Of a stretch of 64,000 nt of DNA, positions 4,659 to 18,590 are shown one piece after another; position 1 is the first letter of the stretch, and each line of letters starts with the position of its first letter. Below the pieces are notes generated by a model. That model was not told the DNA's origin and made no database searches. It worked only from the letters and a program-made list of their open reading frames with translations. Position numbers and translations under genes: made by a program. This DNA comes from Longimicrobiales bacterium (lineage in GTDB: Bacteria; Gemmatimonadota; Gemmatimonadetes; Longimicrobiales; Gaopeijiaceae): positions 160,001 to 224,000 of the forward strand of contig OZ252251.1 in assembly GCA_965249725.1 (NCBI GenBank), written 5' to 3'.

Positions 4659-6032
4659 TCAGGCGGGTTTCATCAACTCGTCGCGCACGGCTTCGACACG
4701 TCGTCGGAACGATGCGTCGCCCGCGATCGTCTCCTCGACTTTGCGGATCGAGTGGATCACGGTCGAGTGATCCCGGCCACCGAACAGCTTTCCGATCTGC
4801 ACCAAAGGGTAGTCGAGGAGATCCTTGATCAGGTACATGGCGACCTGGCGGGGGACCGTCAAGTCTTTCGTCCGGCGCTTGGAGCTCAGGGCTTCGTCGC
4901 GCACCTGCCAATGCCTGGCGACGACCTCGCGAATGCGTTCCGGGCTCGCCGGACCCCCTGTTGAATGCGGGTCGTATCCGAAGGTCGCCTGCAGAGCCCT
5001 GCGGGCCAGTTCGACCGAGATTTCTTGATTGGTGAGCGACGAATAGGCCAGGAGCTTGATGACGGCGCCTTCGAGTTCGCGGACTGACGACGTGCAGAAA
5101 CGGGCGATGAAATCGATGACGTCGTGGTCCAGGGTCAGATCGTCGTCGGCCGCCTTCTTCCGGAGGATGGCGATGCGTGTCTCGTAATCCGGCTGCTTGA
5201 TGTCGGCGACCAGCCCCCACTCGAAGCGCGAGATGAGCCGCTCCTCGAGTCCCGGGAGCTCCTTCGGCGGTCGGTCGCTCGTGAGGACGATCTGCTTCTG
5301 AGCGTCGTAGAGGGCGTTGAACGTATGAAAGAACTCCTCCTGGGTGCGCTCCTTGCCCTGGAGAAACTGGACGTCGTCCACGAGGAGCAGGTCCATCTGC
5401 CGGTAGGTGCGCCGAAACTCCGCTGTGGTCCCGTTCTGGATGGCGGTGACCAGGTCGTTGGTGAACTGCTCGGTCGGCAGATATGCGATCCGGCTGTTGG
5501 GCGTCGTCTCACGAATGGCGTTGCCGATGGCGTGCATGAGGTGTGTCTTGCCCAGGCCCACGCCTCCATAGAGGAAGAGCGGGTTGTACATGCGCGCCGG
5601 TTTGCCGGCCACAGCGGTACAGGCTGCCGTCGCGAGCTCGACATTGTCGCCGACCACGAACCGTTCGAAAGAGTAACGCTCGTTCAGCGTAGGAAACGTC
5701 GACGACGTTGCGACGTCGGGTGCGGGGGGTCGCGAACCGGGGGTCGCCACCTCTACGGTCGGAACCGCGAGTGGTGGCGTCGGGTCGCCGCATTGGACCT
5801 TGAGCCGGAGGGGACGTCCGAGAGTCTGCTCTATCAAATCGGCCAGCAGTGGCCCATACTTGTCCTCGAGCCATTCCACGTGGAAAGCGCTGGGCGCCTC
5901 GACGAGGAGTTCCGAGTCGGTGAGTCCGACCGCCGTCGTACCCGCGAGCCAGGTGCGGTAGGTCTGTTCCTGCAGGCGGCCTCGGGCAGCCTCGAGGACC
6001 TTCGACCACAGGTCGTCCGCGGTGAACTCCAT
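4659..6032 (-). CDS. dnaA: Chromosomal replication initiator DnaA
   Basis: YNPLFLYGGVGLGKTHL Walker A, LLVDDVQF, EEFFHTFN, RLISRF, GGRDHSTVIHS domain IV. Confidence 0.98.
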   Translation of the reverse strand: MEFTADDLWSKVLEAARGRLQEQTYRTWLAGTTAVGLTDSELLVEAPSAFHVEWLEDKYGPLLADLIEQTLGRPLRLKVQCGDPTPPLAVPTVEVATPGSRPPAPDVATSSTFPTLNERYSFERFVVGDNVELATAACTAVAGKPARMYNPLFLYGGVGLGKTHLMHAIGNAIRETTPNSRIAYLPTEQFTNDLVTAIQNGTTAEFRRTYRQMDLLLVDDVQFLQGKERTQEEFFHTFNALYDAQKQIVLTSDRPPKELPGLEERLISRFEWGLVADIKQPDYETRIAILRKKAADDDLTLDHDVIDFIARFCTSSVRELEGAVIKLLAYSSLTNQEISVELARRALQATFGYDPHSTGGPASPERIREVVARHWQVRDEALSSKRRTKDLTVPRQVAMYLIKDLLDYPLVQIGKLFGGRDHSTVIHSIRKVEETIAGDASFRRRVEAVRDELMKPA

Positions 6033-6103
6033 GCGCTCCTTGGGAATGTCTGGACGGTCCGGCGACGCTAGTGCTGAATCTAGCGGAGAGTCAGCGGGCA
6101 GGC

Positions 6104-6132
6104 ACGCTAGAATCCTGATGTGGAAAAGTCAA
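6104..6132 (-). promoter_or_regulatory. Putative sigma70 dnaA promoter containing a DnaA box
   Basis: Minus strand TTGACT-N17-TAGCGT with a perfect TTTTCCACA at 6119-6127. Confidence 0.6.
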
Positions 6133-6182
6133 TTTCGGTGGTATGCGTCAAGGAGTTTCAGGCTTCAGGGACCCGCCTGGGC

Positions 6183-6212
6183 TTGACCTCGGTTCACGCT
6201 CTCGGATATCTT
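6183..6212 (+). promoter_or_regulatory. Putative sigma70 promoter of the rpmH operon
   Basis: TTGACC-N18-TATCTT upstream of rpmH. Confidence 0.45.
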
Positions 6213-6277
6213 TCCATGCTAATTTTGTGGCGGTCCGAACAGCGGATCCCAGGACGACAAAAGAAGGCTCCAACGCT

Positions 6278-6427
6278 ATGAAGCCCACATACAGGCCCCG
6301 CAACCGGAAGCGCGTGAACAAGCACGGTTTCCGTGAGCGGATGAAGACTCGCGGAGGGCGGAAGACGCTGGCCAGGCGGCGGGCGCGAGGGCGCGCTCAG
6401 CTGGTGGTGAAGATCGGCTCGAAGTAG
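6278..6427 (+). CDS. rpmH: 50S ribosomal protein L34
   Basis: [24 protein letters not shown]; canonical position divergent from dnaA. Confidence 0.97.
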
Positions 6428-6431
6428 TCGC

Positions 6432-6836
6432 ATGAACGCGGCCCGCTCGGCAGCCGGGCCGGGTCCGAGCCGGACCGCAGAGTTTCGCTTCCCACGCTCG
6501 GCACGCATCACCCAGACCCGAGAGATCCGGTCTCTGCTTCGGCAGGGCACCCGGAAGAAGACGCCCAACCTGGACGTCTTCTTTTTGTCTTCACACGGGC
6601 CGCGGAGCCGGTGGGGTCTCATCGTTCCCAAGCATAGGCATTCCATTGTCGAAAGAAACCGCGTGAAGCGCCGTCTGAGGGAAATCGGACGGATCCGGGT
6701 GCTACCGCGGCTCGACGAAGCGGGGACTGCCTTCGACGTGTTGGTGCGAGCCCGGAGAGAAGCCTATGCTGCCGGCTTCCGTACTCTCAAGGCAGAGCTT
6801 CAGGCGGTGACGGAGGACCTGTGTTCGGGCGAATGA
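6432..6836 (+). CDS. rnpA: Ribonuclease P protein component
   Basis: RWGLIVPK...[14 protein letters not shown] motif; synteny. Confidence 0.95.
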
Positions 6837-7078
6837 TTTTCGGGATGATCCGGTTCTATCAGCGAGGGATCTCGCCGTTCACCCGTGCTTCATGCCGGTT
6901 TTCACCTACCTGTTCCGAGTACGCGGCCGTGGCCGTGGAGCGCTACGGTCCGGCGCGTGGAACCTGGCTCGCGATCAAACGAATCCTGCGATGCCGGCCG
7001 TTCGGAGGGTGGGGCCACGACCCCGTGCCGGATGATCTCGAGGTTGCTCAGTTGAATCGACGCGGAAGTGTGGGGTAG
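6833..7078 (+). CDS. yidD: Membrane protein insertion efficiency factor YidD
   Basis: [38 protein letters not shown] overlap with rnpA. Confidence 0.95.
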
Positions 7079-8854
7079 ATGAAACAGGAAGCGCGGTTCC
7101 TTCTCGCGATCTCTCTGATGATCCTCGTCCTTGTCGGGACGAACCTTCTCTTCCCGCCCATTCCGCCCGAGGATCTCCAACCGGCTGTGGGTGACTCGGT
7201 GACCTCTGCGGAGGCTCCGCCCGAGGCCACGCCGCCACCCGAGCTCGTCGCCCCCGGCCAAGCACAGACCGACGCCGTACCGGCCATTGTCAGTGATCCG
7301 CTGCAGCAGCCGGCCGGACAAGGCGTGCCGACCGAGGCTGCGCCGCCGCCGCCCCCGCCGGCGCCCCTCCAGCAGCCCGCCGCGGTTCCAGCCGAGGCGA
7401 TCGTGGTCGAGGGGCCACTCTACAGATTCACGTTCAGCAACTACGGCGGTCGTTTGACGTCGGCACGGCTGCTCCAATTCCCATCGTTCGCCAATGAAGG
7501 ACCGGTAGAGCTTTTCCACGAGGACGGAACGGGTGCGCTGGGCGTCGAGATCCAGGCCGACAGAGGCAGTCTGGATCTACACAATCTCCCCTTCGAGGTG
7601 GTACCCCGTGAGGGACTCGTCCTGACCGAGGGGGGTGGTCCGAAGACCCTGACACTGACCTATCGACACCCATCCGGAGCGGTCACGTTCAAGACGACGT
7701 ACACCTTCGATCCGGGTTCGTACGAGATCGGAGTCCGGACGGACCTCAGCGGCGTCGATCGGTCGCTCCTGGTGACGGACATGGGGACCGGCCTTGCGTA
7801 CAACGAAGCGAGGCAGGCAGACGAGTCACGCATCATGGGCTACGTGACGAATCACCTCCGTGAAGGCATCCAGGCGGAGCCGATGCGCAAGGTGGACGAG
7901 GATCAGTTGGTGGAGGGTCCGCTCCTCTGGTCGGCGCTGAAGAGCAAGTACTTCCTCTTCGCCGTATTGCCGGGAACGGGCAACGAGGAGCAGTACCTCG
8001 GTGGCCTGATGGCGAGTCCGGCGCTCGGTGAGGACCAGGCTGAGGTCTCCGTGACCCAGCCGTTCGGGGCGACCGGGTCCACGAGCTATCGGCTCTTCAT
8101 GGGCCCTCAGGAGCGAGAGCTCCTGACGGTCTACGGCAACGGGCTGGAGGAGGCCAATCCCTTCGGGTATCGCTGGATGCGCGTGGTCGTCCGACCCGTC
8201 GTCGTGATCGTGCTGGCGGTCCTCAACTTCCTACACTCCAGGCTGAATGTCGGCTACGGCTGGGTGCTCATCATCTTCGGCGTGATGATGCGGGTGCTGC
8301 TGTTCCCGCTGAACCAGAAGGCGATGCGGGCGCAGATGCGCAACATGGCCGTGCAGCCGCTCCTGCAGGACATCCAGAAGAAGTACAAGGACCAACCGGA
8401 GAAGCTTCAGAAGGAGATGATGAAGCTGTACAAGGAGCATGGCTTCAACCCGCTTGCCGGGTGTCTGCCGATGCTGCTGCCTTGGCCCGTCCTCATCACC
8501 CTCTTCTTCATCTTCCAGAACACGATCCAGCTCAGGGGCGAGAGCTTCCTCTGGCTCCCGAACCTGTCGGCGGCCGATCCGTTCTACATCCTGCCCGTTC
8601 TGTTGGGCGCATCCATGTTCCTCATGCAGTTCATCTCGGTACGGTCGATGCCGGAGCCGAACCCGCAGATGAAGATGATGATGTGGATGATGCCGATCAT
8701 GATGACGTTCATCTTCCTGAACTTCGCGTCGGGTCTGAACCTCTATTACGCGACCGCGAACCTGGCCACGCTACCCCAGCAGTACTTCATCGCCAAAGAG
8801 CGACAGAAGCTCAAGGCGCAGCCCCCCCTGAAGCCCGCTACCAGCGGTGACTGA
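7079..8854 (+). CDS. yidC: Membrane protein insertase YidC
   Basis: N-terminal TM, periplasmic domain, YGWVLII, LYKEHGFNPLAGCLP, DPFYILP. Confidence 0.97.
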   Translation: MKQEARFLLAISLMILVLVGTNLLFPPIPPEDLQPAVGDSVTSAEAPPEATPPPELVAPGQAQTDAVPAIVSDPLQQPAGQGVPTEAAPPPPPPAPLQQPAAVPAEAIVVEGPLYRFTFSNYGGRLTSARLLQFPSFANEGPVELFHEDGTGALGVEIQADRGSLDLHNLPFEVVPREGLVLTEGGGPKTLTLTYRHPSGAVTFKTTYTFDPGSYEIGVRTDLSGVDRSLLVTDMGTGLAYNEARQADESRIMGYVTNHLREGIQAEPMRKVDEDQLVEGPLLWSALKSKYFLFAVLPGTGNEEQYLGGLMASPALGEDQAEVSVTQPFGATGSTSYRLFMGPQERELLTVYGNGLEEANPFGYRWMRVVVRPVVVIVLAVLNFLHSRLNVGYGWVLIIFGVMMRVLLFPLNQKAMRAQMRNMAVQPLLQDIQKKYKDQPEKLQKEMMKLYKEHGFNPLAGCLPMLLPWPVLITLFFIFQNTIQLRGESFLWLPNLSAADPFYILPVLLGASMFLMQFISVRSMPEPNPQMKMMMWMMPIMMTFIFLNFASGLNLYYATANLATLPQQYFIAKERQKLKAQPPLKPATSGD

Positions 8855-10229
8855 GCACCTGGCGGTGGACACCATCGCCGCGGTGGCGACCGCCCCGGGG
8901 TTGGGCGCAGTCGCGATGGTGAGGCTCTCGGGAAGCCGGGCCTTCGACATTCTCAGGGTGCTTACACCCGATCAGTCCGACCCGGGAACGCCCCGTACCG
9001 CGCGCCTCTTGGAGCTGCGAGATCCTGATTCGGGCGGGCTGCTGGATCGCGCACTGGTCACCACCTTCCCGGCACCCGACAGCTACACCGGCGAGGACGT
9101 CGTAGAGATCTCGAGTCACGGGGGATGGCTGGTGCCCGCTCTCGTGCTCGAGGCCTGCCAGACCGCCGGTGCGCGTGTCGCCGAGCCCGGGGAGTTCACG
9201 CGGCGGGCGGTCTTGCACGGCAAGATGGACTTGGTGCAGGCCGAGGCGGTGCTCGACCTCGTGGAGGGACACAGCCGTGCGCTCCACGACAGCGCGCTCT
9301 TCCAGTTGGATCGGGGGCTCAGTACGCGGATCGGGGCGCTGCGGGAGCAGGTGGTCGCCGTCGAGGCCCTCCTGGTCCATCACATCGACTTTCCCGAAGA
9401 GGACGAGGCGCCTGTTTCGTTGGAGCGCGTCGTTGAAGAGGCGAGGGTCCTACTCTCCGACCTGGACGCGCTGTTGAGTACGGCACCCGAGGGCGAGTTG
9501 CTCCGCGAGGGGGCGCTCACCGTTCTGGCGGGCCTGCCCAACTCCGGCAAGTCGAGTCTCTACAACGCGCTGCTCGGTCAGGATCGAGCGATCGTCACGG
9601 AGATTCCGGGCACCACCCGAGATGCTCTGGAGTCCGTCGTGTCGTTGGGTGGTTTCCCGTTTCGATTGGTCGACACGGCGGGCATCCGGGATACAAAAGA
9701 GACCGTGGAGCGCTTGGGCATCGAGGTGGCGAGGCGCTATCTCGATCGCGCGGACCTGGTGCTCTTCTGCGTGGAGAGCGGCCGCGCCCTGCTCCCTGAC
9801 GAGAGGGAATTCCTCGGGGACCTGGGAGACGTGCCGGTCGTGGTCCTTCGCACCAAGACCGATCTCGCGTCTGATAAGGGTGCCAACTCGGACGGCACCC
9901 CCCCCTCGGGCGAGAGCGTCGAGATCTCCGTGCTGGATGGAACTGGCCTGGCTCGCCTTCGACAGGTGCTTCCCACGCTCGTGTATCGGGGCTTCGTTCA
10001 GACCGGCGTCACCGTGCCCGCTCTGACCCGTGCGAGGCACCGGGAGGGAATCCGTGCGGCCCGGGACCATGTGGCCGGTTTCATCACGGCGCTGACGGAC
10101 GCGGTGCCGGCTGAGTTGGCATCGACGCATCTTCGACCTGCCCAGACGGCGCTGGAGGAGTTGCTCGGAGTGGTATCCCACGACGAGGTTCTGGACCGGG
10201 TGTTTCGTGACTTCTGTATCGGCAAATGA
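8847..10229 (+). CDS. mnmE: tRNA modification GTPase MnmE
   Basis: DTIAAVATAPG, SYTGEDVVEI, GLPNSGKSS, GTTRD, DTAG, C-terminal FCIGK. Confidence 0.97.
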   Translation: MTEHLAVDTIAAVATAPGLGAVAMVRLSGSRAFDILRVLTPDQSDPGTPRTARLLELRDPDSGGLLDRALVTTFPAPDSYTGEDVVEISSHGGWLVPALVLEACQTAGARVAEPGEFTRRAVLHGKMDLVQAEAVLDLVEGHSRALHDSALFQLDRGLSTRIGALREQVVAVEALLVHHIDFPEEDEAPVSLERVVEEARVLLSDLDALLSTAPEGELLREGALTVLAGLPNSGKSSLYNALLGQDRAIVTEIPGTTRDALESVVSLGGFPFRLVDTAGIRDTKETVERLGIEVARRYLDRADLVLFCVESGRALLPDEREFLGDLGDVPVVVLRTKTDLASDKGANSDGTPPSGESVEISVLDGTGLARLRQVLPTLVYRGFVQTGVTVPALTRARHREGIRAARDHVAGFITALTDAVPAELASTHLRPAQTALEELLGVVSHDEVLDRVFRDFCIGK

Positions 10230-10531
10230 TGACGGACGAGCACACAGCTCTGCAGTTGGGCTTCCGGATCGAGGGCCGTGTCCAGGGCGTCGGTTTCCGG
10301 TGGTGGACACGCCGGATGGCGACCGAACTCGGGCTTCGGGGTGTGGTCCTGAACCGCAGGGACGGAAGCGTGGAGGTGCATGCCGTGGGCGACATCGATT
10401 CGGTCGAGCGGCTCGAGGCCTACTTGGTGGACGGACCCCCCGGGTCCCGAGTCGACCGAGTGGCACGGGTGGCGTCGGACCGGTCCCTGCCGGACGACTT
10501 CGAGATCGTCTCGGGCTCAAGGCTCTTCTGA
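10226..10531 (+). CDS. acyP: Acylphosphatase
   Basis: GRVQGVGFR and NRRDGSVE motifs. Confidence 0.92.
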   Translation: MMTDEHTALQLGFRIEGRVQGVGFRWWTRRMATELGLRGVVLNRRDGSVEVHAVGDIDSVERLEAYLVDGPPGSRVDRVARVASDRSLPDDFEIVSGSRLF

Positions 10532-10550
10532 TGATCGTAGTGTGGTGCCG

Positions 10551-12509
10551 ATGAGCGGCGAACGCTACGACGTGATCGTCGTTGGTGGAGGTCACGCCGG
10601 GTCAGAAGCGGCGGCCGCTGCGGCCCGAATCGGCGCTCGGACCCTGCTGATCACGCCCGACCTCTCCCGGGTCGGACAGATGAGCTGCAATCCGGCGATT
10701 GGTGGGATCGCAAAGGGCGTGGTGGCGAGGGAGGTAGACGCGTTGGGTGGCGTCATGGGACGTGCCACCGATGCCTCGCGGATCCAGTTCCGAATGCTCA
10801 ACCGACGAAAGGGACCCGCCGTTTGGGGCCCGCGTGCCCAGTGCGATAGAGGTCTCTACCCGAGGGCCGTGCGGCGAGTGCTGGACGCGCTTCCGAACCT
10901 GGCGCTCTTCCAGGAGATGGTGACCGGGCTGCTCATCGAGGGGGACCGGGCAAAGGGAGTGCGCACGCGTGGGGGTTTGGACTTCCGGGCGGAGAGGGTG
11001 GTGGTGACCGCCGGCACCTTCCTACGCGGCCGAATTCACATTGGTGGTGAGGCCGGACTGGGGGCGGGTCGCGCGGGTGAAGCTCCTTCCATAGCGCTGG
11101 CCGAAGAACTGGAGGCTCGGGGCCTGGAGATCGCCCGTTTCAAGACGGGCACGCCCCCGCGCATCGACGGCCGAACCGTGGACTACTCCCGGGTCGAGAG
11201 GCAGGACGGCGATCCGGAGGACTTCCGGTTTTCCGCGTATGCCGAAGAGAGTGTCCCCGACCAGCGTCCATGTTGGATCACATGGACCGGAGAGGACCTG
11301 AGTAGGGTGGTCCAGGACAACCTGGAGCGCAGCGCGCTGTTCGGCGGTGAAATTTCCGGAAGGGGACCCCGATACTGCCCTTCCATCGAAGACAAGATCG
11401 TTCGCTTCCCGGACTCTCCCCGACATCAGGTGTTCTTGGAACCCGAGGGACTGGAGACGACGGAGCTCTATGTGAACGGGCTGTCGACGTCTCTACCGCC
11501 CGAGGTGCAGGTCGACTTCCTCAGAACCGTCCCGGGTCTCGAACGTGTCGAGGTCACGAAGGTCGGATACGCTATCGAGTACGACTACTTCCCGCCCCAC
11601 CAGCTCCGTCATACGCTCGAGGTGCGCGAAGTCCCAGGCCTCTACTTCGCCGGACAGATCAACGGAACGACCGGATACGAAGAAGCCGCCGGTCAGGGAT
11701 TGATCGCCGGGGCGAACGCCGGACTGAGCGCGCTCGGCAGGGCTCCGCTCATCCTGGAGAGGGACCAGGCGTACATCGGGGTGCTTATCGACGACCTGAT
11801 CACCAAGGGTGTGGACGAACCCTACCGGTTGTTCACGTCACGGGCCGAGTTCAGGCTCATGCTCCGACAGGACAATGCGGCGCGTCGGCTGGGGCCGCTC
11901 GCGCGGGATGTCGGTCTCTTGACGACGGATCAAGAGGCAGCATTGGACCGTCGTGTGGAGCGAGAAGACGGCATCCGACAGTGGTTCGTCGAGACCGTGG
12001 TGAAGCCGTCGGAGGTGAATCCGCTGCTGGCACACGTCGACACGCCTCCGATCGAGCAGTCGGTGCGAGCGGCCGAACTGCTCAAGCGGCCGCAGGTTCC
12101 GGCGAGCGGCCTGGCCGTGGCCGGAGGCGCTCCGTTCGATCCCGCCCTGGAGGTAGATGCCGTGGCGGCGGTCGAGGTGGAGCTCAAGTACGAAGGGTAT
12201 GTGCGACGCGAGGCCGAGCGCGCGGAGAGGCTACGGGAACAGGCGGACTTCGTTTTGGCGGACGACCTCCCGTACGCCGATTTCGTGAACGTGTCGTCCG
12301 AGGCGAGAGAAAAGCTCGCCCGGATCCGGCCCGAGTCCTTGGCGCAGGCGGCACGGATACCGGGTGTGTCTCCGTCGGACCTGCAGAACCTGATCCTCGA
12401 GGTTCGACGATGGCGGAGTCGGCGTGTGCTGGAGGTGACCGGCGAGGTGACCGGCGAGGTGACCGGCGAGGTGACCGGCGAGGCGACCGGTGAGGTGACC
12501 GGCGATTGA
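10551..12509 (+). CDS. mnmG: tRNA uridine-5-carboxymethylaminomethyl modification enzyme MnmG
   Basis: VVGGGHAG, MSCNPAIGG, KTGTPPR, GPRYCPSIEDK, AGQINGTTGYEEAA; start set at MSGERYD. Confidence 0.97.
   Translation: MSGERYDVIVVGGGHAGSEAAAAAARIGARTLLITPDLSRVGQMSCNPAIGGIAKGVVAREVDALGGVMGRATDASRIQFRMLNRRKGPAVWGPRAQCDRGLYPRAVRRVLDALPNLALFQEMVTGLLIEGDRAKGVRTRGGLDFRAERVVVTAGTFLRGRIHIGGEAGLGAGRAGEAPSIALAEELEARGLEIARFKTGTPPRIDGRTVDYSRVERQDGDPEDFRFSAYAEESVPDQRPCWITWTGEDLSRVVQDNLERSALFGGEISGRGPRYCPSIEDKIVRFPDSPRHQVFLEPEGLETTELYVNGLSTSLPPEVQVDFLRTVPGLERVEVTKVGYAIEYDYFPPHQLRHTLEVREVPGLYFAGQINGTTGYEEAAGQGLIAGANAGLSALGRAPLILERDQAYIGVLIDDLITKGVDEPYRLFTSRAEFRLMLRQDNAARRLGPLARDVGLLTTDQEAALDRRVEREDGIRQWFVETVVKPSEVNPLLAHVDTPPIEQSVRAAELLKRPQVPASGLAVAGGAPFDPALEVDAVAAVEVELKYEGYVRREAERAERLREQADFVLADDLPYADFVNVSSEAREKLARIRPESLAQAARIPGVSPSDLQNLILEVRRWRSRRVLEVTGEVTGEVTGEVTGEATGEVTGD
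12432..12503 (+). repeat. 12-bp tandem repeat GAGGTGACCGGC x6 encoding (EVTG)n at the MnmG C-terminus
   Basis: Read directly. Confidence 0.95.
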
Positions 12510-12522
12510 GGGTTGGCTTGCC

Positions 12523-13611
12523 TCAGTCCCTCGATGAACTCGACTCATCCAGAACGGTGTTGGCGAGCGCCCGCGCCACCGGCGCAGCCTTCGCGAGTCG
12601 TTCACCATCTATCTCCTGGCCCGGTGTCTGATTGGTCAACACGACCACGCAGATCTCCTCGGTGGGAATCCGTAGGATGAACGCGTTGAAGCCCGGTAGT
12701 CCCCCGCCGTGGGCGAGCGTGCGGTGGCCGCGTAGCTGCCCGATCCGCCAGCCGTAGCCGTACGACTCCCTCTCGGGCCGGTACAGGGCTGCATAGGCGG
12801 CCTCCGATACGAAGGAGTGGGACGAGAGTGCGACATCCCATCGGGCCAGGTCCTCGGCCGTCGAGTAGAGGTTTCCGCCGCCGGTGAGGATGGCCAGGAA
12901 GATGTCTGATGCGTTCTCGATCGTCCCATCCTCACTTCGGACGTAGCCTGACGCACGATCACGCAGAAGCGGCCCGGGGACGTCGGCCCCCGAATCGCGC
13001 ATGCCGCTTGGCGTGAAGATCTCGGCGTCGAGAAAGGCCTCGTAGGGCTGTCCTGAAACCTCCTCGACGACCTTGGCGAGCAGGAAATACCCGACCCCGC
13101 TGTACCGGTAGTCGGTCCCGGGCGCGAAGACGAGCGGCTGCTCGAAGAACCGCTCTAACGTTTCGTCCAGGGTGGTCGGCACCGCCATCGTCTCCGCGAA
13201 ACCGGGCAGCGCCCACGAGTGCATGATGCCGGATGTGTGCGTGAGAAGCTGATGGAGGGTCAGCGCCTGCCATGATTCGGGGACGCTCTGGAGGTGATCC
13301 CCCACGCGATCCTGGACCCGGAGCCGTCCTCGATCTTGCAGAATCATGATCGCCATCGAGGTGAACTGCTTGGTGATGGATCCGATCCGGAACTTCGTGC
13401 CGGGCGCGTTAGGCACACCCAGCTCGAGGTTGGCCATCCCGTATCCTGCAGACAGCACGGTCTCACCGGCCCTGGTGACGATGATCGAGCCGCTGAGGTC
13501 GGCCTCCTTTGCCACCTCGTCGAGCCGGTCCGCGAGCGGCTGGGCCTCCACCCCCGCGCCCGTGAGTGCGAGCGCCAGGAGTGTAAGGCAGGTCGGGATG
13601 TCGCGTGCCAT
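12523..13611 (-). CDS. Secreted serine hydrolase, beta-lactamase class C/AmpC-like family
   Basis: Signal peptide (VEA-Q), FRIGSITKQF (SxxK), LLTHTSG, YSG, HGG. Confidence 0.9.
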   Translation of the reverse strand: MARDIPTCLTLLALALTGAGVEAQPLADRLDEVAKEADLSGSIIVTRAGETVLSAGYGMANLELGVPNAPGTKFRIGSITKQFTSMAIMILQDRGRLRVQDRVGDHLQSVPESWQALTLHQLLTHTSGIMHSWALPGFAETMAVPTTLDETLERFFEQPLVFAPGTDYRYSGVGYFLLAKVVEEVSGQPYEAFLDAEIFTPSGMRDSGADVPGPLLRDRASGYVRSEDGTIENASDIFLAILTGGGNLYSTAEDLARWDVALSSHSFVSEAAYAALYRPERESYGYGWRIGQLRGHRTLAHGGGLPGFNAFILRIPTEEICVVVLTNQTPGQEIDGERLAKAAPVARALANTVLDESSSSRD

Positions 13612-13629
13612 GGTGTCTCCGTGTTGGAC

Positions 13630-14865
13630 TTACCGAACCTCAAACGTGATGGGAATCTGCACCCAGACCTTCACGGGTTCGTCCTTGTTGAGTGCCCCGG
13701 TAAACCTATACACGCGGGCGACCTCCAGGGCGGCATCGTCGAGGGCGTCGCGCCCACTGGTCCGAGACAGGCGGCTCTCGATGGTCCTCCCCGTTTCGTC
13801 GATGTGGAACCAAACCAAGGTCTGTCCACCAACCCCCGCATCCCGGAGTACCTGGGGATACGCTCCCATCATGGCCTGAATCACCTCACGGCGATTGGTG
13901 ATTTCGGGCCGGACCGTCATAGGCGTGAAGTAGGGTCCGTCCTGGGCGACAACGGAGGCCTGTGGCGGCGTGGTCGGTAGCTGTTCCATCTGACAAGCGG
14001 TCACGACCAACAAACCCGCGAGGAAGGTCATGCCGAGGGCTCGGCCGTAGTGGGGATCTGGGTTGTCTGTCATGGCTCGAATCCTCCTTTCGAGGAATGG
14101 TGCGGGGCGTGCGAACGCCAAAACGCCGGCCGGGGAGGTCATCCTTCGGGCACCGATCTCGACCAGAAGGCTTGCGTACGGCCTCACCTCTGACGAACGG
14201 CGAAGGACTCTATGGTCGCAGTCGATTTCGATAGCCAACCGAAGCCTACGGACCATCCACCACATGGGAACGCACCAAGGGAGCATGACCAGCAGCCAGA
14301 GGGCTGATGACGTTAACCACACATCACCCGCAGCTCGGTGCTCCGATTCGTGCTGGAGCATGAGTTCCTGCTCGGGCGCGGGCATCTCGAGTGCCCATGA
14401 AGGCATGACGATGGCCGATCTGACGAGTCCAACGACTCCGGGCCCAAAATTCTCCGCCAGGAGGATGTCTCGGTCTCCGAGCTTCATCCGAGTCCAGGTG
14501 GAGCGCTCGGATGAAAGGCCGACATGGGCGCAGAGGAGCACCAGGCCCACCACGAGAGACAGAGTTCCCCAGACTGCGGCGGCGTAGGGGTCGAGGCCGG
14601 CAGGAAGGACAAAGCTGGAGGTCAACTCTGTGAGCGACGCCGCAACAGGACCGCCAGCGGCGTCCGGACCGACGACGTCTACAGGCGTAGACGAGCCTCC
14701 AGGCCAAGGGAATACCAGCAGGGTGAACCCCAGCGATGTGGCGAGGGCCGCTGCCCAGATCCAGCGGGTGAAAAAGAGGAGTCCGCGCACTGCCCGTTCG
14801 CACGTGAAGGCTGCGAGGGCGAGGAGGAGCGTCACCGCAGTCACGTAGATCATCAGGCTCAACAT
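13630..14865 (-). CDS. BlaR1/M56 family metallopeptidase fused to a TonB C-terminal domain
   Basis: N-terminal TMs, HESEH (HExxH), EIDCD, FLERRI; C-terminal YPQVLRDAGVGG..IDETG..SGRDALDDAAL..VWVQIPITF. Confidence 0.9.
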   Translation of the reverse strand: MLSLMIYVTAVTLLLALAAFTCERAVRGLLFFTRWIWAAALATSLGFTLLVFPWPGGSSTPVDVVGPDAAGGPVAASLTELTSSFVLPAGLDPYAAAVWGTLSLVVGLVLLCAHVGLSSERSTWTRMKLGDRDILLAENFGPGVVGLVRSAIVMPSWALEMPAPEQELMLQHESEHRAAGDVWLTSSALWLLVMLPWCVPMWWMVRRLRLAIEIDCDHRVLRRSSEVRPYASLLVEIGARRMTSPAGVLAFARPAPFLERRIRAMTDNPDPHYGRALGMTFLAGLLVVTACQMEQLPTTPPQASVVAQDGPYFTPMTVRPEITNRREVIQAMMGAYPQVLRDAGVGGQTLVWFHIDETGRTIESRLSRTSGRDALDDAALEVARVYRFTGALNKDEPVKVWVQIPITFEVR

Positions 14866-14867
14866 CG

Positions 14868-15257
14868 TCAGTCCTCCTCTTCCGTTGGATCATCGCCCAG
14901 TCGTTCGTCTACGAGCTGGCGAATGCGCCGGAGCTGCTCTTCATCCATGCGCCGGTCGGAGACGAGCTCTACGAGAAGAAGCTCGGGCGAACCCTTGAAT
15001 ATCTTCTTGAGCAGACGGCCGAGTTCGCGTCCCCCGGCGGTCTGCCAGTCCACAGTAGGGTGGTAGCGGTAGGCGCGGCCCTCCGCCTCGTGTCGGACGT
15101 AGCCCTTCTCTTCCAGCGTCTGAAGGGCGGATAGGACCGTCGTGTATGCGAGCGAGTCCACCATACGCTCTCTGACTTCGGCGACCGTCGCCGAGCCCAG
15201 GTCCCAGAGGATAGACATCACGTCCAACTCGCGAGGGGTAAACGACTCTGGCGGCAC
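14868..15257 (-). CDS. BlaI/MecI/CopY family transcriptional repressor
   Basis: RELDVMSILW, LAYTTVLSAL..LEEKGYV..GRAYRY; AAGGAG RBS before GTG. Confidence 0.93.
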   Translation of the reverse strand: MPPESFTPRELDVMSILWDLGSATVAEVRERMVDSLAYTTVLSALQTLEEKGYVRHEAEGRAYRYHPTVDWQTAGGRELGRLLKKIFKGSPELLLVELVSDRRMDEEQLRRIRQLVDERLGDDPTEEED

Positions 15258-15271
15258 TGGTTCTCCTTGTT

Positions 15272-15332
15272 TACGGGAATTCCCGTAGCAATATTGGTGT
15301 CGGCCGCATGGTTGTCAACGGGGAAACCCGTA
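15272..15332 (-). promoter_or_regulatory. blaI promoter with two candidate BlaI operators
   Basis: Perfect palindrome TACGGGAATTCCCGTA 15272-15287, imperfect copy AACGGGGAAACCCGTA 15317-15332, minus-strand TTGACA-N17-AATATT between them. Confidence 0.7.
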
Positions 15333-15389
15333 GATGGGACTTGCGGCCCACGAACTCGAGGCGGCGGCGTAACACGGGCAGATCCGGCC

Positions 15390-15405
15390 TGTTCCACGTG
15401 AAACA
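15390..15405. promoter_or_regulatory. parS site 1
   Basis: TGTTCCACGTGAAACA matches the parS consensus TGTTNCACGTGAAACA. Confidence 0.92.
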
Positions 15406-15414
15406 CCCGCATTC

Positions 15415-15430
15415 TGTTTCACGTGGAACA
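15415..15430. promoter_or_regulatory. parS site 2 (inverted copy)
   Basis: TGTTTCACGTGGAACA is the exact reverse complement of site 1. Confidence 0.92.
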
Positions 15431-15456
15431 GCAAGCAACTACGGGTAAGTGGGGTC

Positions 15457-15936
15457 CTACCGGGGCACCAACACGGTTCGAAGGGTCGCCGCCTCGGTCG
15501 TGCCGTCGAGATTGAAGTCGAAGTTTGTGCCTCCGGAGAAGATCACGGAGTTGCCTTCCCGCTCCCAAGCAGCTCGGGACTCACCCGACGTGGGGAGCTC
15601 CCGGTTGAACACGATCTCCGATCCTTCGACCGTAAGCATCCCGGACTCACTCGATGATTGGCCGTATCCCGAGAGAATGGCGGTGTATCGGCCCGACGGC
15701 TGCACGTTCAGGGTGAACGCGGCATTGAGGGGGGGTGCGACGATGTCGGGCGAGACCTCGGGGTTGATCAGGCTTGTGACCACCATGGATTCGGCGATCC
15801 AATTCCCGACCATGAAATCCGGGCCGAACTGAGGGCTTACCAGGTTGCTGGTGTCACCGCCACCGCCGCATCCCAACGCGAGAAAAGCCAGCCACAAAGC
15901 GGTTGATCGGGCAGCGGCACGACAGTTGCGGATCAT
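15457..15936 (-). CDS. Hypothetical lipoprotein (lipocalin-like beta fold possible)
   Basis: Lipobox LALG-C; MVGNW motif similar to the lipocalin GxW; start uncertain (15936 or 15945). Confidence 0.65.
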   Translation of the reverse strand: MIRNCRAAARSTALWLAFLALGCGGGGDTSNLVSPQFGPDFMVGNWIAESMVVTSLINPEVSPDIVAPPLNAAFTLNVQPSGRYTAILSGYGQSSSESGMLTVEGSEIVFNRELPTSGESRAAWEREGNSVIFSGGTNFDFNLDGTTEAATLRTVLVPR

Positions 15937-16119
15937 GTCAGACACTCAGCCTCATAGCGAATCTCAGGGAGGAGACTGCCCATGTCTCGGGCCCCTCAAG
16001 GCCCTGAATCTATCATCCGTCGGGCGCCTGCGGAACCAGTGCAGCCTTGCTTTACCGTGTGTCTCGCAGGCCGTATATTCCCGACCTCACCGAAGGATTC
16101 ACATCCCAACGGTCCGTGC

Positions 16120-16899
16120 ATGTCACGCGTCATCGCAATCGCCAACCAAAAAGGCGGGGTCGGTAAGACCACCACCGCAATCAACCTCGGCGCCTCGCTG
16201 GCCGTAGCCGAGTGTCGTACGCTGGTCATCGACATGGATCCCCAGGGAAATGCCAGTAGCGGCCTAGGTATTTCGGCCGGTCCAGACCTCCTCACGATCT
16301 ATGACGTCCTCATCGGCGGACGCGAGGCTGAGGAGGCCATTATCAAGTCGGTGCAGTTCCCTTTCTTGGATCTGATGCCGAGCACGCGCGATTTGGTGGG
16401 GGCGGAAATCGAGCTCGTGGGAGCTCTGAGTCGGGAGACCATCCTCCGACGAGCCTTGGAGTCGATTCGCGAGGAGTATGACTACATCCTCGTGGATTGC
16501 CCCCCTTCCCTGGGCTTGTTGACGCTCAATACGTTGACGGCGGCGGATTCCGTGTTGATCCCGATACAATGCGAATTCTACGCTCTCGAGGGCCTGAGTC
16601 AGCTTCTGAACACCGTGCGGCTCGTTCAGCGGGCCCTGAATCCCGCTCTCGAGATCGAAGGTGTTCTTCTCACGATGTTCGATCGCCGCCTGAATCTGTC
16701 CCGCCAGGTCGCCGCCGAGGCCCGTGAGTATTTCCAGGATCGTGTGTATCGCACTGCCATCCCCCGTAACGTCCGATTGGCCGAGGCCCCGTCGTTCGGT
16801 CAGCCCATCGTGCAGTACGACGTGCTGTCACAAGGAGCCCAGAGCTATCTGGCTCTCGCGAAAGAGCTCCTGGTCGGGCGCGGGCCGGCAGCGGCGTAG
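16120..16899 (+). CDS. parA: Chromosome partitioning ATPase ParA/Soj
   Basis: MSRVIAIANQKGGVGKTTT, DMDPQGNA, DCPPSLG, IPRNVRLAEAPSFG. Confidence 0.97.
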   Translation: MSRVIAIANQKGGVGKTTTAINLGASLAVAECRTLVIDMDPQGNASSGLGISAGPDLLTIYDVLIGGREAEEAIIKSVQFPFLDLMPSTRDLVGAEIELVGALSRETILRRALESIREEYDYILVDCPPSLGLLTLNTLTAADSVLIPIQCEFYALEGLSQLLNTVRLVQRALNPALEIEGVLLTMFDRRLNLSRQVAAEAREYFQDRVYRTAIPRNVRLAEAPSFGQPIVQYDVLSQGAQSYLALAKELLVGRGPAAA

Positions 16900-16938
16900 A
16901 GTCGTGTCAGTCGTTCATCCATTGGAGGCCCAAGGCCA

Positions 16939-17835
16939 GTGACTCCCCCCGTGAAGAAGGACCGGTTGGGCAAAGGCCTCGGGGCCCTGCTCGGCGACTA
17001 CATGGATCCTGCGGTCACCGGTGCCGAGGCGCCTCGCTTGCCTGTGTCGGCCATCGTCCCCAATCCCAAGCAGCCCCGGCGGACGTTCTCCGACAGCGAT
17101 CTCGAGGACCTGGCGCGATCCATCGACGAGAACGGGCTTCTCCAGCCTCTGTTGGTCCGCCCTGCCCCGGGCATACCGGATCGGTACGAACTGGTCGCCG
17201 GTGAGCGCCGTCTTCGCGCAGTTCGGAGCTTGGGCTGGGACGATGTGCCTGCTCTCACGCGCCAGGTCGATGATGACACGCTCCTGGTGTTGGCGCTCGT
17301 CGAGAACCTCCAGCGCGAGGCCCTGAACCCCATCGAAGAGGCCGAGGGCTACCAGGCATTGGAGGCGCAACACGGTTTGAACCACGGTGCGATCGCCAAG
17401 TCCGTCGGGAAGAGCCGATCGACCGTGGCGAACATGCTCCGCCTGCTCCAACTCCCCGTATCCGTGCGCAAGTTGGTGGAGAAAGGGGATCTGGCCACCG
17501 GTCACGCCCGCGCGTTGCTGGCCGTCAGCGACCCCATCCAATTGGCTGAGCTCGCTCGCCGGACCGTCGAATCGGGCTGGTCGGTGCGAGAGGTGGAGCG
17601 GCGTGTGCGGAGGGGTCCGCCGAAGAAGAAATCCGGACCTCGGTCCACCGAGGCGCGGGATCCCGTAGTTCGGGCGCTCGAGGAGGAGCTTCGCTCGGCC
17701 CTGGCCACGAAGGCTCATGTCCGACAGGGTTCGGCGGGAACGGGGGTCATCGAGATTCCGTACCGGAATGCAGAGGACTTCGAGCGTGTCTTCGAGGTCA
17801 TTACCGGGCGTGACGCGTCCGAGGTTGTGTCTTGA
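16939..17835 (+). CDS. parB: Chromosome partitioning protein ParB/Spo0J
   Basis: LGKGLGALL, NPKQPRRTF, GLLQP, AGERRLRA, ENLQRE, HTH. Confidence 0.97.
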   Translation: MTPPVKKDRLGKGLGALLGDYMDPAVTGAEAPRLPVSAIVPNPKQPRRTFSDSDLEDLARSIDENGLLQPLLVRPAPGIPDRYELVAGERRLRAVRSLGWDDVPALTRQVDDDTLLVLALVENLQREALNPIEEAEGYQALEAQHGLNHGAIAKSVGKSRSTVANMLRLLQLPVSVRKLVEKGDLATGHARALLAVSDPIQLAELARRTVESGWSVREVERRVRRGPPKKKSGPRSTEARDPVVRALEEELRSALATKAHVRQGSAGTGVIEIPYRNAEDFERVFEVITGRDASEVVS

Positions 17836-18590
17836 GTGATCGTCTCCTGAGGATCGTCCTCATTCCCGACTCCGCCGAGAGTCGTTCTTACAAGATCGGT
17901 TACCGTCGGCTTCGGATCCTCAGGGGTCTGGCCATCGGGCTCGGCGTCATCCTTCTCTTTGTGGTCGCCACGTGGGCCTATATGGCGGCTCGGGTCTCTC
18001 ATGTGGTCGAACTCGAAGCGCAGGTTGCGGCCCTGCAGGCCGAGCGGGCCCGCTTTCCGGCTCTCATTCGGCAGATCAACGCCTTGGAGGAGCAGTACGA
18101 GGGCCTCCGTGCGCTGTTCGCACCGGATGGAGCCGGTGCGCCGTCGGAGCTCTGGCTACCTCCCCCGGCCTCCTTGAGTCGATCGTCAGCCCGAGACGAG
18201 AGCGGTGCCGGGGTTCCCGACAGCTGGCCTCTGACGGAGCGTGGATTCGTCACGCAGGGGCTGTTGGATGACCAAGGGCGAGCCCATCCGGGACTGGACA
18301 TCGCGATCCCCACGGGGTCATATATTCGAGCCGCCGGCGCGGGCCAGGTACTCGACGTGGGTGAGGATGCCACGTATGGGTTGTATGTTCGTTTAGGACA
18401 TGGAAACGGATACGAGACCCTCTACGCTCATGCCTCGGTCACGGCGGTGGAGCTTGGAGAGGACGTTCGGAAAAACGAAGTGATCGCGTTCAGCGGATCG
18501 ACAGGACGGTCGACCGCTCCGCACCTCCACTTCGAAATCCTGCTCGAGGGAGCGGCGGTTGATCCCCTCGAGTTGGTTCAACAGCCTTAG
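17832..18590 (+). CDS. Membrane-anchored M23 family peptidase
   Basis: TM, coiled coil, HPGLD and HLH zinc motifs, YAH; TTGA overlap with the parB stop. Confidence 0.9.
   Translation: MSDRLLRIVLIPDSAESRSYKIGYRRLRILRGLAIGLGVILLFVVATWAYMAARVSHVVELEAQVAALQAERARFPALIRQINALEEQYEGLRALFAPDGAGAPSELWLPPPASLSRSSARDESGAGVPDSWPLTERGFVTQGLLDDQGRAHPGLDIAIPTGSYIRAAGAGQVLDVGEDATYGLYVRLGHGNGYETLYAHASVTAVELGEDVRKNEVIAFSGSTGRSTAPHLHFEILLEGAAVDPLELVQQP

Follow-up and report, generated by a model that had tools for sequence, protein, structure and literature searches.

The closest described relatives of the locus presented here are the repressor-protease pairs BlaR1/BlaI and MecR1/MecI of S. aureus (PDB 8EXP-8EXT). 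According to the cryo-EM study of BlaR1, autocleavage occurs at Ser283-Phe284, and Arg294 of helix alpha9 forms a salt bridge with Asp246; in S. aureus BlaR1, the signal peptidase SpsB also cuts behind the last membrane helix (PMC9834060). A second BlaR1 product is not mentioned in the accessible text of a review of regulated proteolysis (PMC7593790). Fusions of an M56 protease to a TonB C-terminal domain (TonB_C) were catalogued, and not functionally characterized, in B. thetaiotaomicron as TonB1/BT0813 and TonB10/BT3898; they share the domain architecture of the gene studied here, and the accessible part of that work mentions neither an internal start nor a second product (PMC10350073). Shorter C-terminal products in frame with a longer protein are likewise known: CheA-short, SpaO-short, and CcmM35 result from internal initiation (PMC13515050) and FtsW-short from an internal promoter (PMC4117421). 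For an internal start in M56 genes, we found no description in a full-text literature search that had most subscription papers outside its reach, and the sequence-only reading from which this work started had known of none either. In-frame internal starts and M56-TonB fusions being known, the internal start in M56 genes is probably what is new, and it is probably family-wide.

We analyzed a window of 64,000 nucleotides from a Longimicrobiales bacterium (contig OZ252251.1). An ORF at 13630..14865 (−) encodes a full-length BlaR1-type M56 zinc protease with a TonB_C sensor (411 aa, ~45.1 kDa), in which Pfam recognizes Peptidase_M56 at residues 141-263 (PF05569, over the cut-off) and TonB_C at residues 335-409. 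It follows a gene for a 129-aa blaI-family repressor (14868..15257, −; Pfam Penicillinase_R, E 5.6e-28), whose 3' end contains the Shine-Dalgarno (SD) sequence of the M56 gene, AGGAGG (14873..14878, −; −10.1 kcal/mol). The gluzincin motifs H172ExxH176, D181, and E213xxxD217 (14215..14352, −) are as in BlaR1, H172-H176 and E213-D217 being invariant across 66 relatives. Aligned to BlaR1 of S. aureus (8exp_A; E 7e-21), a profile built from 82 M56 segments places Phe251 in register with Phe284 and Arg260-Arg261 with Arg293-Arg294; equivalents of Asp210, Tyr261, and Arg294 of BlaR1 are kept. The sequence-only reading had taken the KRR region for the autocleavage site of BlaR1. This has to be corrected, the real site being Ser283-Phe284 (PMC9834060), which corresponds in the 8exp_A alignment to a predicted autocleavage bond Ala250-Phe251 (14113..14118, −). 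An AlphaFold model (pLDDT 86.6) shows helices at 257-266 and 273-291 followed by a disordered linker at 295-308, and all four of its top fold matches are BlaR1.

Two TAC-N10-GT(A/T) palindromes flank a sigma70-type promoter, TTGACA-17 nt-AATATT (15290..15318, −). This promoter was the single site in a scan of 12300-15500 (shuffle mean 0.3), which thus revealed no internal promoter; such a scan does not exclude one. BlaI-type operator 1, CTAC-N10-GTTG (15316..15333, −), overlaps the −35 box, and operator 2 (15271..15288, −), the perfect palindrome TACGGG-N4-CCCGTA, lies directly 3' of the −10 box. The exact operator 2 sequence occurs once in the genome, at this promoter, and two of the seven sites within one mismatch are the two of the window. 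TAC-N10-GTA is also present in 49 of 94 windows located 5' of related blaI genes. An Rfam scan of 11000-17000 gave zero matches.

The zinc motifs, the Pfam match, the adjacent BlaI-family gene, and the palindromic operators place the protein in peptidase M56. Like BlaR1 and MecR1, it is paired with a repressor, has the HExxH and ExxxD motifs and the autocleavage register, and carries an extracytoplasmic domain after its last membrane helix. Unlike them, its sensor is a TonB_C and not a penicillin-binding domain, which is absent from the protein, and no conserved separate effector gene was seen; NCBIfam blaR1_generic scores 27.5 bits against a cut-off of 400. From these features, the gene is a member of peptidase M56 predicted to work like BlaR1/BlaI, with no beta-lactam sensor. 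Further differences from BlaR1 are a lipobox at the end of the last helix and, ahead of this helix, an internal SD-ATG under selection.

Judged from neighboring genes named by eye (dnaA, rpmH, rnpA, yidC, mnmE, mnmG, and parA-parB, at 4659-12509 and 15982-18590 of the window), the blaI-M56 cassette is located in the replication-origin region. The 5' gene (15457-15945, −), also found in the same-genus genome G002, encodes a small protein that contains a lipobox-like LALGC and matches neither Pfam nor NCBIfam. The second M56 gene of the genome (L001, G000:C3:2305523-2309353) has a transposase-like ORF (by eye) directly 5' and neither ATG nor SD at the internal position.

Codons 259-265 of the window ORF (14865-13630, −) read GAA AGG AGG ATT CGA GCC ATG. 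Arg260-Arg261 of helix alpha9 are encoded by AGGAGG (14083..14088, −), an internal SD that precedes, with a 9-nt spacer, the in-frame ATG of Met265 (14071..14073, −), exactly as first noticed from the letters. The predicted internal product (13630..14073, −) is a 147-aa prolipoprotein of 16.3 kDa. Its putative 26-aa signal peptide (13996..14073, −) is the last transmembrane helix of the long product (273-291) and has a mean hydropathy of 2.1 over its final 15 residues. It ends in a VTAC lipobox at 288-291, with Cys291 (13993..13995, −), Cys27 of the short form, followed by Gln; the predicted mature form has 121 aa and 13.6 kDa before lipid. Translation and Pfam also bear out the TonB C-terminal domain (13639..13863, −), and 74 of the last 100 residues are identical to those of the canonical TonB of the same genome. 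The n-region has a net charge of −1, compared with +1 to +5 in 37 of 38 lipobox-bearing relatives. The genome has a canonical anti-SD in its 16S tail and encodes Lgt, LspA, and LolA.

Pairing of the anti-SD upstream of the internal ATG (−10.0 kcal/mol) is as strong as at the gene's own start (−10.1 kcal/mol) and, compared with a synonymous-codon null, lies at quantile 0.02. In a roughly compiled collection of 1679 ORFs from this genome (≥300 aa), Arg-Arg is encoded as AGGAGG in 50 of 4762 cases, and AGGAGG precedes 58 of 14705 internal ATGs. The window M56 gene is itself AGG-rich (7 of 33 Arg), a level reached by 3.6% of genes.

We compared this region among 224 usable M56 loci, 109 from Gemmatimonadota and 115 from a cross-phyla pattern scan, and kept 160 representatives at <60% identity for codon counts. 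We left out L003 (duplicate), L026 and L031 (TonB only), L054 and L114 (truncated), L139, L173, L206, and L224 (frameshifted or truncated at the motif), L263 (column without Arg), and L299 (gap); L234-L238 served as context only, and two weak records from a plasmid tblastn were left out. Five genomes marked unpublished (G037, G056, G114, G210, and G232) contributed to search tallies but support none of the claims. Loci were considered ATG-bearing when an ATG lies at +6 to +9, that is, six to nine codons past the Leu of LERRI. Expected AGG/AGA counts were derived from the codon use of each gene itself. The p-values of the counts treat representatives as independent and overstate the significance. 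Because a protein constraint keeps Arg261 invariant, selection on the RNA can be read cleanly from its codon.

At Arg261, AGG or AGA is used by 63 of the 86 ATG-bearing representatives (15.7 expected) and by 15 of the 74 with no ATG at +6 to +9 (14.2 expected). The sequence-only reading had proposed to test homologs for AGG AGG above the genomic AGG rate with a Met 2-4 codons later, and its core inference of a conserved internal start giving a lipoprotein form of the C-terminal domain passes this test. In Gemmatimonadota, the counts are 40/48 with the ATG (6.1 expected) and 4/21 without (2.0 expected). For the other phyla, the counts are 23/38 (9.6 expected) and 11/53 (12.1 expected), respectively. 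In the remaining eight of the 48 Gemmatimonadota representatives with the ATG, Arg261 is encoded by neither AGG nor AGA, and several have no evident SD. Among 18 Arg-rich columns in these 48 genes, only Arg260 (17/38) and Arg261 exceed expectation, control columns such as R207 (5/45), R209 (1/42), and R219 (7/44) being at expectation. The Arg260 codon is CGG or AGG in 35 of 38 cases, which keeps GG ahead of AG. No excess was observed in other Arg-x(2-4)-Met contexts of the same ORFs (34/277 AGG/AGA, 44.6 expected), and 299 other internal ATGs are at background (median null quantile 0.53). Both arginine codons differ between the window (AGG AGG) and its same-genus orthologue (CGG AGA), and the SD is retained. 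These counts show, as far as codon use can, selection at Arg261 and not chance.

The spacing from GGAG to ATG is 10 nt in 22 of 44 matches, the genome peak being 5-8 nt. Alternative internal starts are only suggestive: the median quantile is 0.34 for an ATG at +4 (five loci) and 0.18 for one at +5 (13 loci), and Val at +6 to +8 is encoded by GTG in 13 of 21 cases (8.3 expected). SD-forming codons (AGG AGA or AGG AGT) and ATG are both displaced about two codons further downstream in L167, L223, and L232.

Composition and folding around the ATG also resemble those of a translation start. Third-position GC in the 48 ATG-bearing Gemmatimonadota decreases over codons −10 to −6 and +3 to +5, with z reaching −4.0, and, compared with synonymous shuffles, windows of 39 nt surrounding the ATG are ~2.1 kcal/mol less stably folded (t ~5.1). 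Neither the GC3 drop nor the weaker folding was found in 19 ATG-less Gemmatimonadota. The folding effect is smaller in other phyla, with t 3.0 in the validation sample. By its SD, start codon, and low structure, the region is that expected of an in-frame internal-initiation proteoform. The proposed test had also included a conserved lipobox: with a permissive pattern, a lipobox-like Cys occurs in 39/48 ATG-bearing and 4/19 ATG-less Gemmatimonadota (15 and 2, respectively, with a strict pattern), at 25-30 aa from the Met and mostly 27 residues past it. At the level of this comparison, lipobox presence is tied to the internal ATG.

We applied the identical scoring rule to an independent sample of 104 further loci from four phyla, providing 89 new representatives. 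Among those of the three phyla other than Bacteroidota, AGG/AGA was found in 16 of 21 with the ATG (4.5 expected, p 2e-10), but the group without ATG was also somewhat raised (11/34, 5.3 expected, p 0.008). This excess speaks against a clean split and is only partly explained by an ATG at +5 or a GTG at +7. Bacteroidota naturally lack SD sequences (PMC6847099), and their representatives with the Met show no AGR excess (7/19, 6.5 expected). They have instead extra adenines over the seven codons before the Met (161 vs 144.6, z 3.0), a feature absent from Met-less ones. In a 58-row tree with a median of 0.84 substitutions per site on terminal branches, the ATG state changes seven times, and CGN is found in each of the eight ATG-less rows, including L065, which has kept the Cys and carries GGAG followed by an ATG at +4. 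Independent contrasts over 14 supported pairs go in the same direction in 6.6 cases and in the opposite one in 0.8, with median p values of 0.0625 (codon) and 0.031 (SD strength); a smaller set of 11 pairs gives p 0.125. The tree-based contrasts are underpowered and borderline, weak evidence whose direction agrees with the codon test.

In five Planctomycetota-type M56 genes (L127, L128, L144, L168, and L221), a signal-peptide-like start, such as EDSxMKK, is present ~18 residues past the motif. Its SD is strong in L144 (−9.5) and weaker in the four others. These might possibly be internal starts that moved independently.

Could the SD-like motif serve the long protein alone? Internal SD sites correlate with ribosome pausing in Caulobacter (PMC4117421), and the motif lies directly ahead of the last membrane helix, whose insertion a programmed pause might aid, Met265 then being a structural residue of a single protein. 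A pause, however, needs no ATG, yet the motif is gone from loci with no start codon at +4 to +9 (Arg261 AGG/AGA in 11/59, 11.2 expected) despite the same helix. Low folding and low GC3 reach past the ATG, and the Bacteroidota signal is A-rich instead, so that we hold this explanation to be very unlikely. We give equally little credit to a lipoprotein derived only from the full-length protein, by autocleavage at Ala250-Phe251 followed by Lgt/LspA processing at Cys291, as a form of shedding or turnover resembling that by SpsB. BlaR1 is documented to cleave itself and to lose its sensor to signal peptidase (PMC9834060), the cleavage register is conserved, and Lgt and LspA are present; but such a route makes no prediction for synonymous codon choice, mRNA folding, or the ATG, on each of which selection acts, and the lipobox tends to vanish along with the ATG. 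Both routes to a separate lipoprotein had been offered at the outset. Internal initiation is the one that gains from the codons, the folding, and the ATG covariation, and autocleavage plus LspA alone is insufficient because these three observations stay unexplained. Alongside internal initiation, LspA may nevertheless also act on the long form and shed its sensor.

The segment resembles a complete gene start, and gene callers place the start of 8 of 11 inspected database proteins exactly at this Met, as would be the case if a lipoprotein gene had long ago been fused to an M56 gene lacking a sensor, with the SD-ATG as a relic of its start. Codon bias, the window gene being AGG-rich, or a site for an RNA-binding protein could likewise have produced the motif as a by-product. 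At a median of 0.84 substitutions per site on end branches, with other Arg columns at background, a neutral relic would have decayed, and the signal is seen in several phyla, on genes whose C-terminal domains are unrelated; as to codon bias, the expected values are already built on the codon use of each gene. With these controls, the relic or by-product reading is largely refuted, and we regard it as even less probable than a pause or shedding.

We therefore return to productive internal initiation at Met265 from the conserved SD-ATG, to which we assign a probability of roughly 0.82. The comparisons above reveal intact protease motifs, operators on the gene's own promoter, and, by all sequence measures used, a selected internal initiation region. 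We propose that one gene specifies two proteins, a sensor protease of the inner membrane and, by internal initiation, a prolipoprotein of 147 aa. The long form, starting at 14865, would be a zinc protease of the BlaR1 type that sits in the inner membrane, exposes a TonB_C domain to the periplasm, and, once activated, autocleaves at Ala250-Phe251 and cuts BlaI, derepressing the blaI-M56 operon. The short form, starting from the SD-ATG at 14088-14073, would reuse the last membrane helix as a signal peptide, and Lgt and LspA would process it into a TonB_C domain anchored by a Cys-linked lipid and devoid of protease. Given initiation, lipidation is likely. In E. coli, lipoproteins with a residue other than Asp at +2 go to the outer membrane; if this rule applies, the short form, with Gln at +2 and LolA present, would be directed there.

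The short product and the canonical TonB of the same genome have the C-terminal TonB_C fold in common. The short product lacks the N-terminal anchor and the long proline-rich linker, and its genetic context is blaI and not exbBD. A TonB copy with neither anchor nor long linker is not expected to be energized by ExbBD, and the same therefore holds for the short form. In 11 of 21 measured relatives, the distance from Cys to YP is 35-57 aa (range 2-246). By its architecture and context, the window gene is no canonical TonB. We suggest that the short form might be the output of the circuit, a non-energized copy of the cell's TonB domain binding TonB-box ligands, with transporter N-termini and incoming TonB-dependent toxins or phage proteins as candidates. 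The inner-membrane long form would use the same TonB_C domain as bait. Derepression would raise both forms, and the short one would act as a buffer for the ligand and weaken the signal by competing with the sensor. For such a decoy or effector role, the odds are close to even and slightly unfavorable.

As in CheA-short, SpaO-short, CcmM35, and FtsW-short, the predicted product is a shorter, in-frame C-terminal one with a distinct role or location. Unlike CheA-short, SpaO-short, and CcmM35, which are cytoplasmic, it would result from a start by which a membrane helix of a polytopic protease becomes the cleavable signal of a lipoprotein; and, unlike in all four, this type of start recurs across one family in several phyla. 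It is not universal, as S. aureus BlaR1 has no Met at the aligned position. For Caulobacter, the alternative-start sheet of PMC4117421 lists none of the four MecR antirepressor genes, but the N-terminal-peptide method used misses cleaved signal peptides, so that their absence counts neither way.

The origin of an effector can also be considered from the gene neighborhood. A beta-lactamase-family serine hydrolase gene (12523..13611, −; Pfam PF00144) starts 18 nt downstream of the M56 gene. We rejected it as a conserved regulated effector, since it is missing at the orthologous locus of the same-genus genome G002, and it is probably a passenger. Among 88 Gemmatimonadota loci with sufficient 3' DNA, 33 of the 63 ATG-bearing ones of the subfamily to which the window gene belongs have no co-oriented ORF within 200 nt 3'; in the other 30, many 3' ORFs resemble unrelated or shadow frames. 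In a second, ATG-less subfamily, 13 of 15 loci have a co-oriented 3' ORF, a comparison confounded by subfamily. The autoregulated operon would otherwise lack an effector, and the short product may well be its output. Among the tails found in 66 Gemmatimonadota representatives are 28 TonB_C, 17 plug, 2 ExbD, and 2 PDZ domains, in a sampling biased towards TonB_C.

Many BlaI-M56 operons have no effector gene, and the conserved internal start would mean, if true, that the gene makes its own effector. A catalytically important Arg would have a codon doubling as a ribosome-binding site across phyla. Such proteoforms would form a class missed by annotation pipelines and by N-terminomics, because the signal peptide is removed (for this limit of N-terminomics, see PMC13515050), and knock-outs, tags, and proteomic peptides of M56 genes would have to be read differently if the short product is made. 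We advance with more doubt than confidence a family-wide extension, in which a large part of the M56/BlaR1 genes of Gemmatimonadota, Acidobacteriota, Pseudomonadota, and Bacillota, and probably of Bacteroidota and Planctomycetota, would be sensors encoding their own effector through an internal start in helix alpha9, with pieces of the cell's own Ton machinery (TonB_C, plug, ExbD) often swapped in within Gemmatimonadota. The extracytoplasmic domain would then be a bait on the protease that is also exported free or as a lipoprotein, providing both the operon output and a feedback loop.

Several additional observations were made in these genomes. An orphan BlaI gene (G000:C3:1274456, −) has a TAC-N10-GTA operator and no M56 partner; it precedes an operon whose products look by eye like a TolC-type channel and an HlyD-type adaptor. 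Similar operators are present at C1:610477 and C3:130693. The window protease might act in trans on this orphan BlaI and hence have other outputs. The short database proteins starting at the internal Met were rejected as stand-alone genes, their contigs being of 0.9-3.5 kb. At L235 (G019:C273), a blaI-M56-TonB_C locus, the M56 frame has an internal stop and apparently neither zinc motif nor last helix. At L234 (G011:C1:838000-845500), four tandem genes with a common N-terminal anchor-like start and similar 5' sequence lie 3' of a TonB_C frame.
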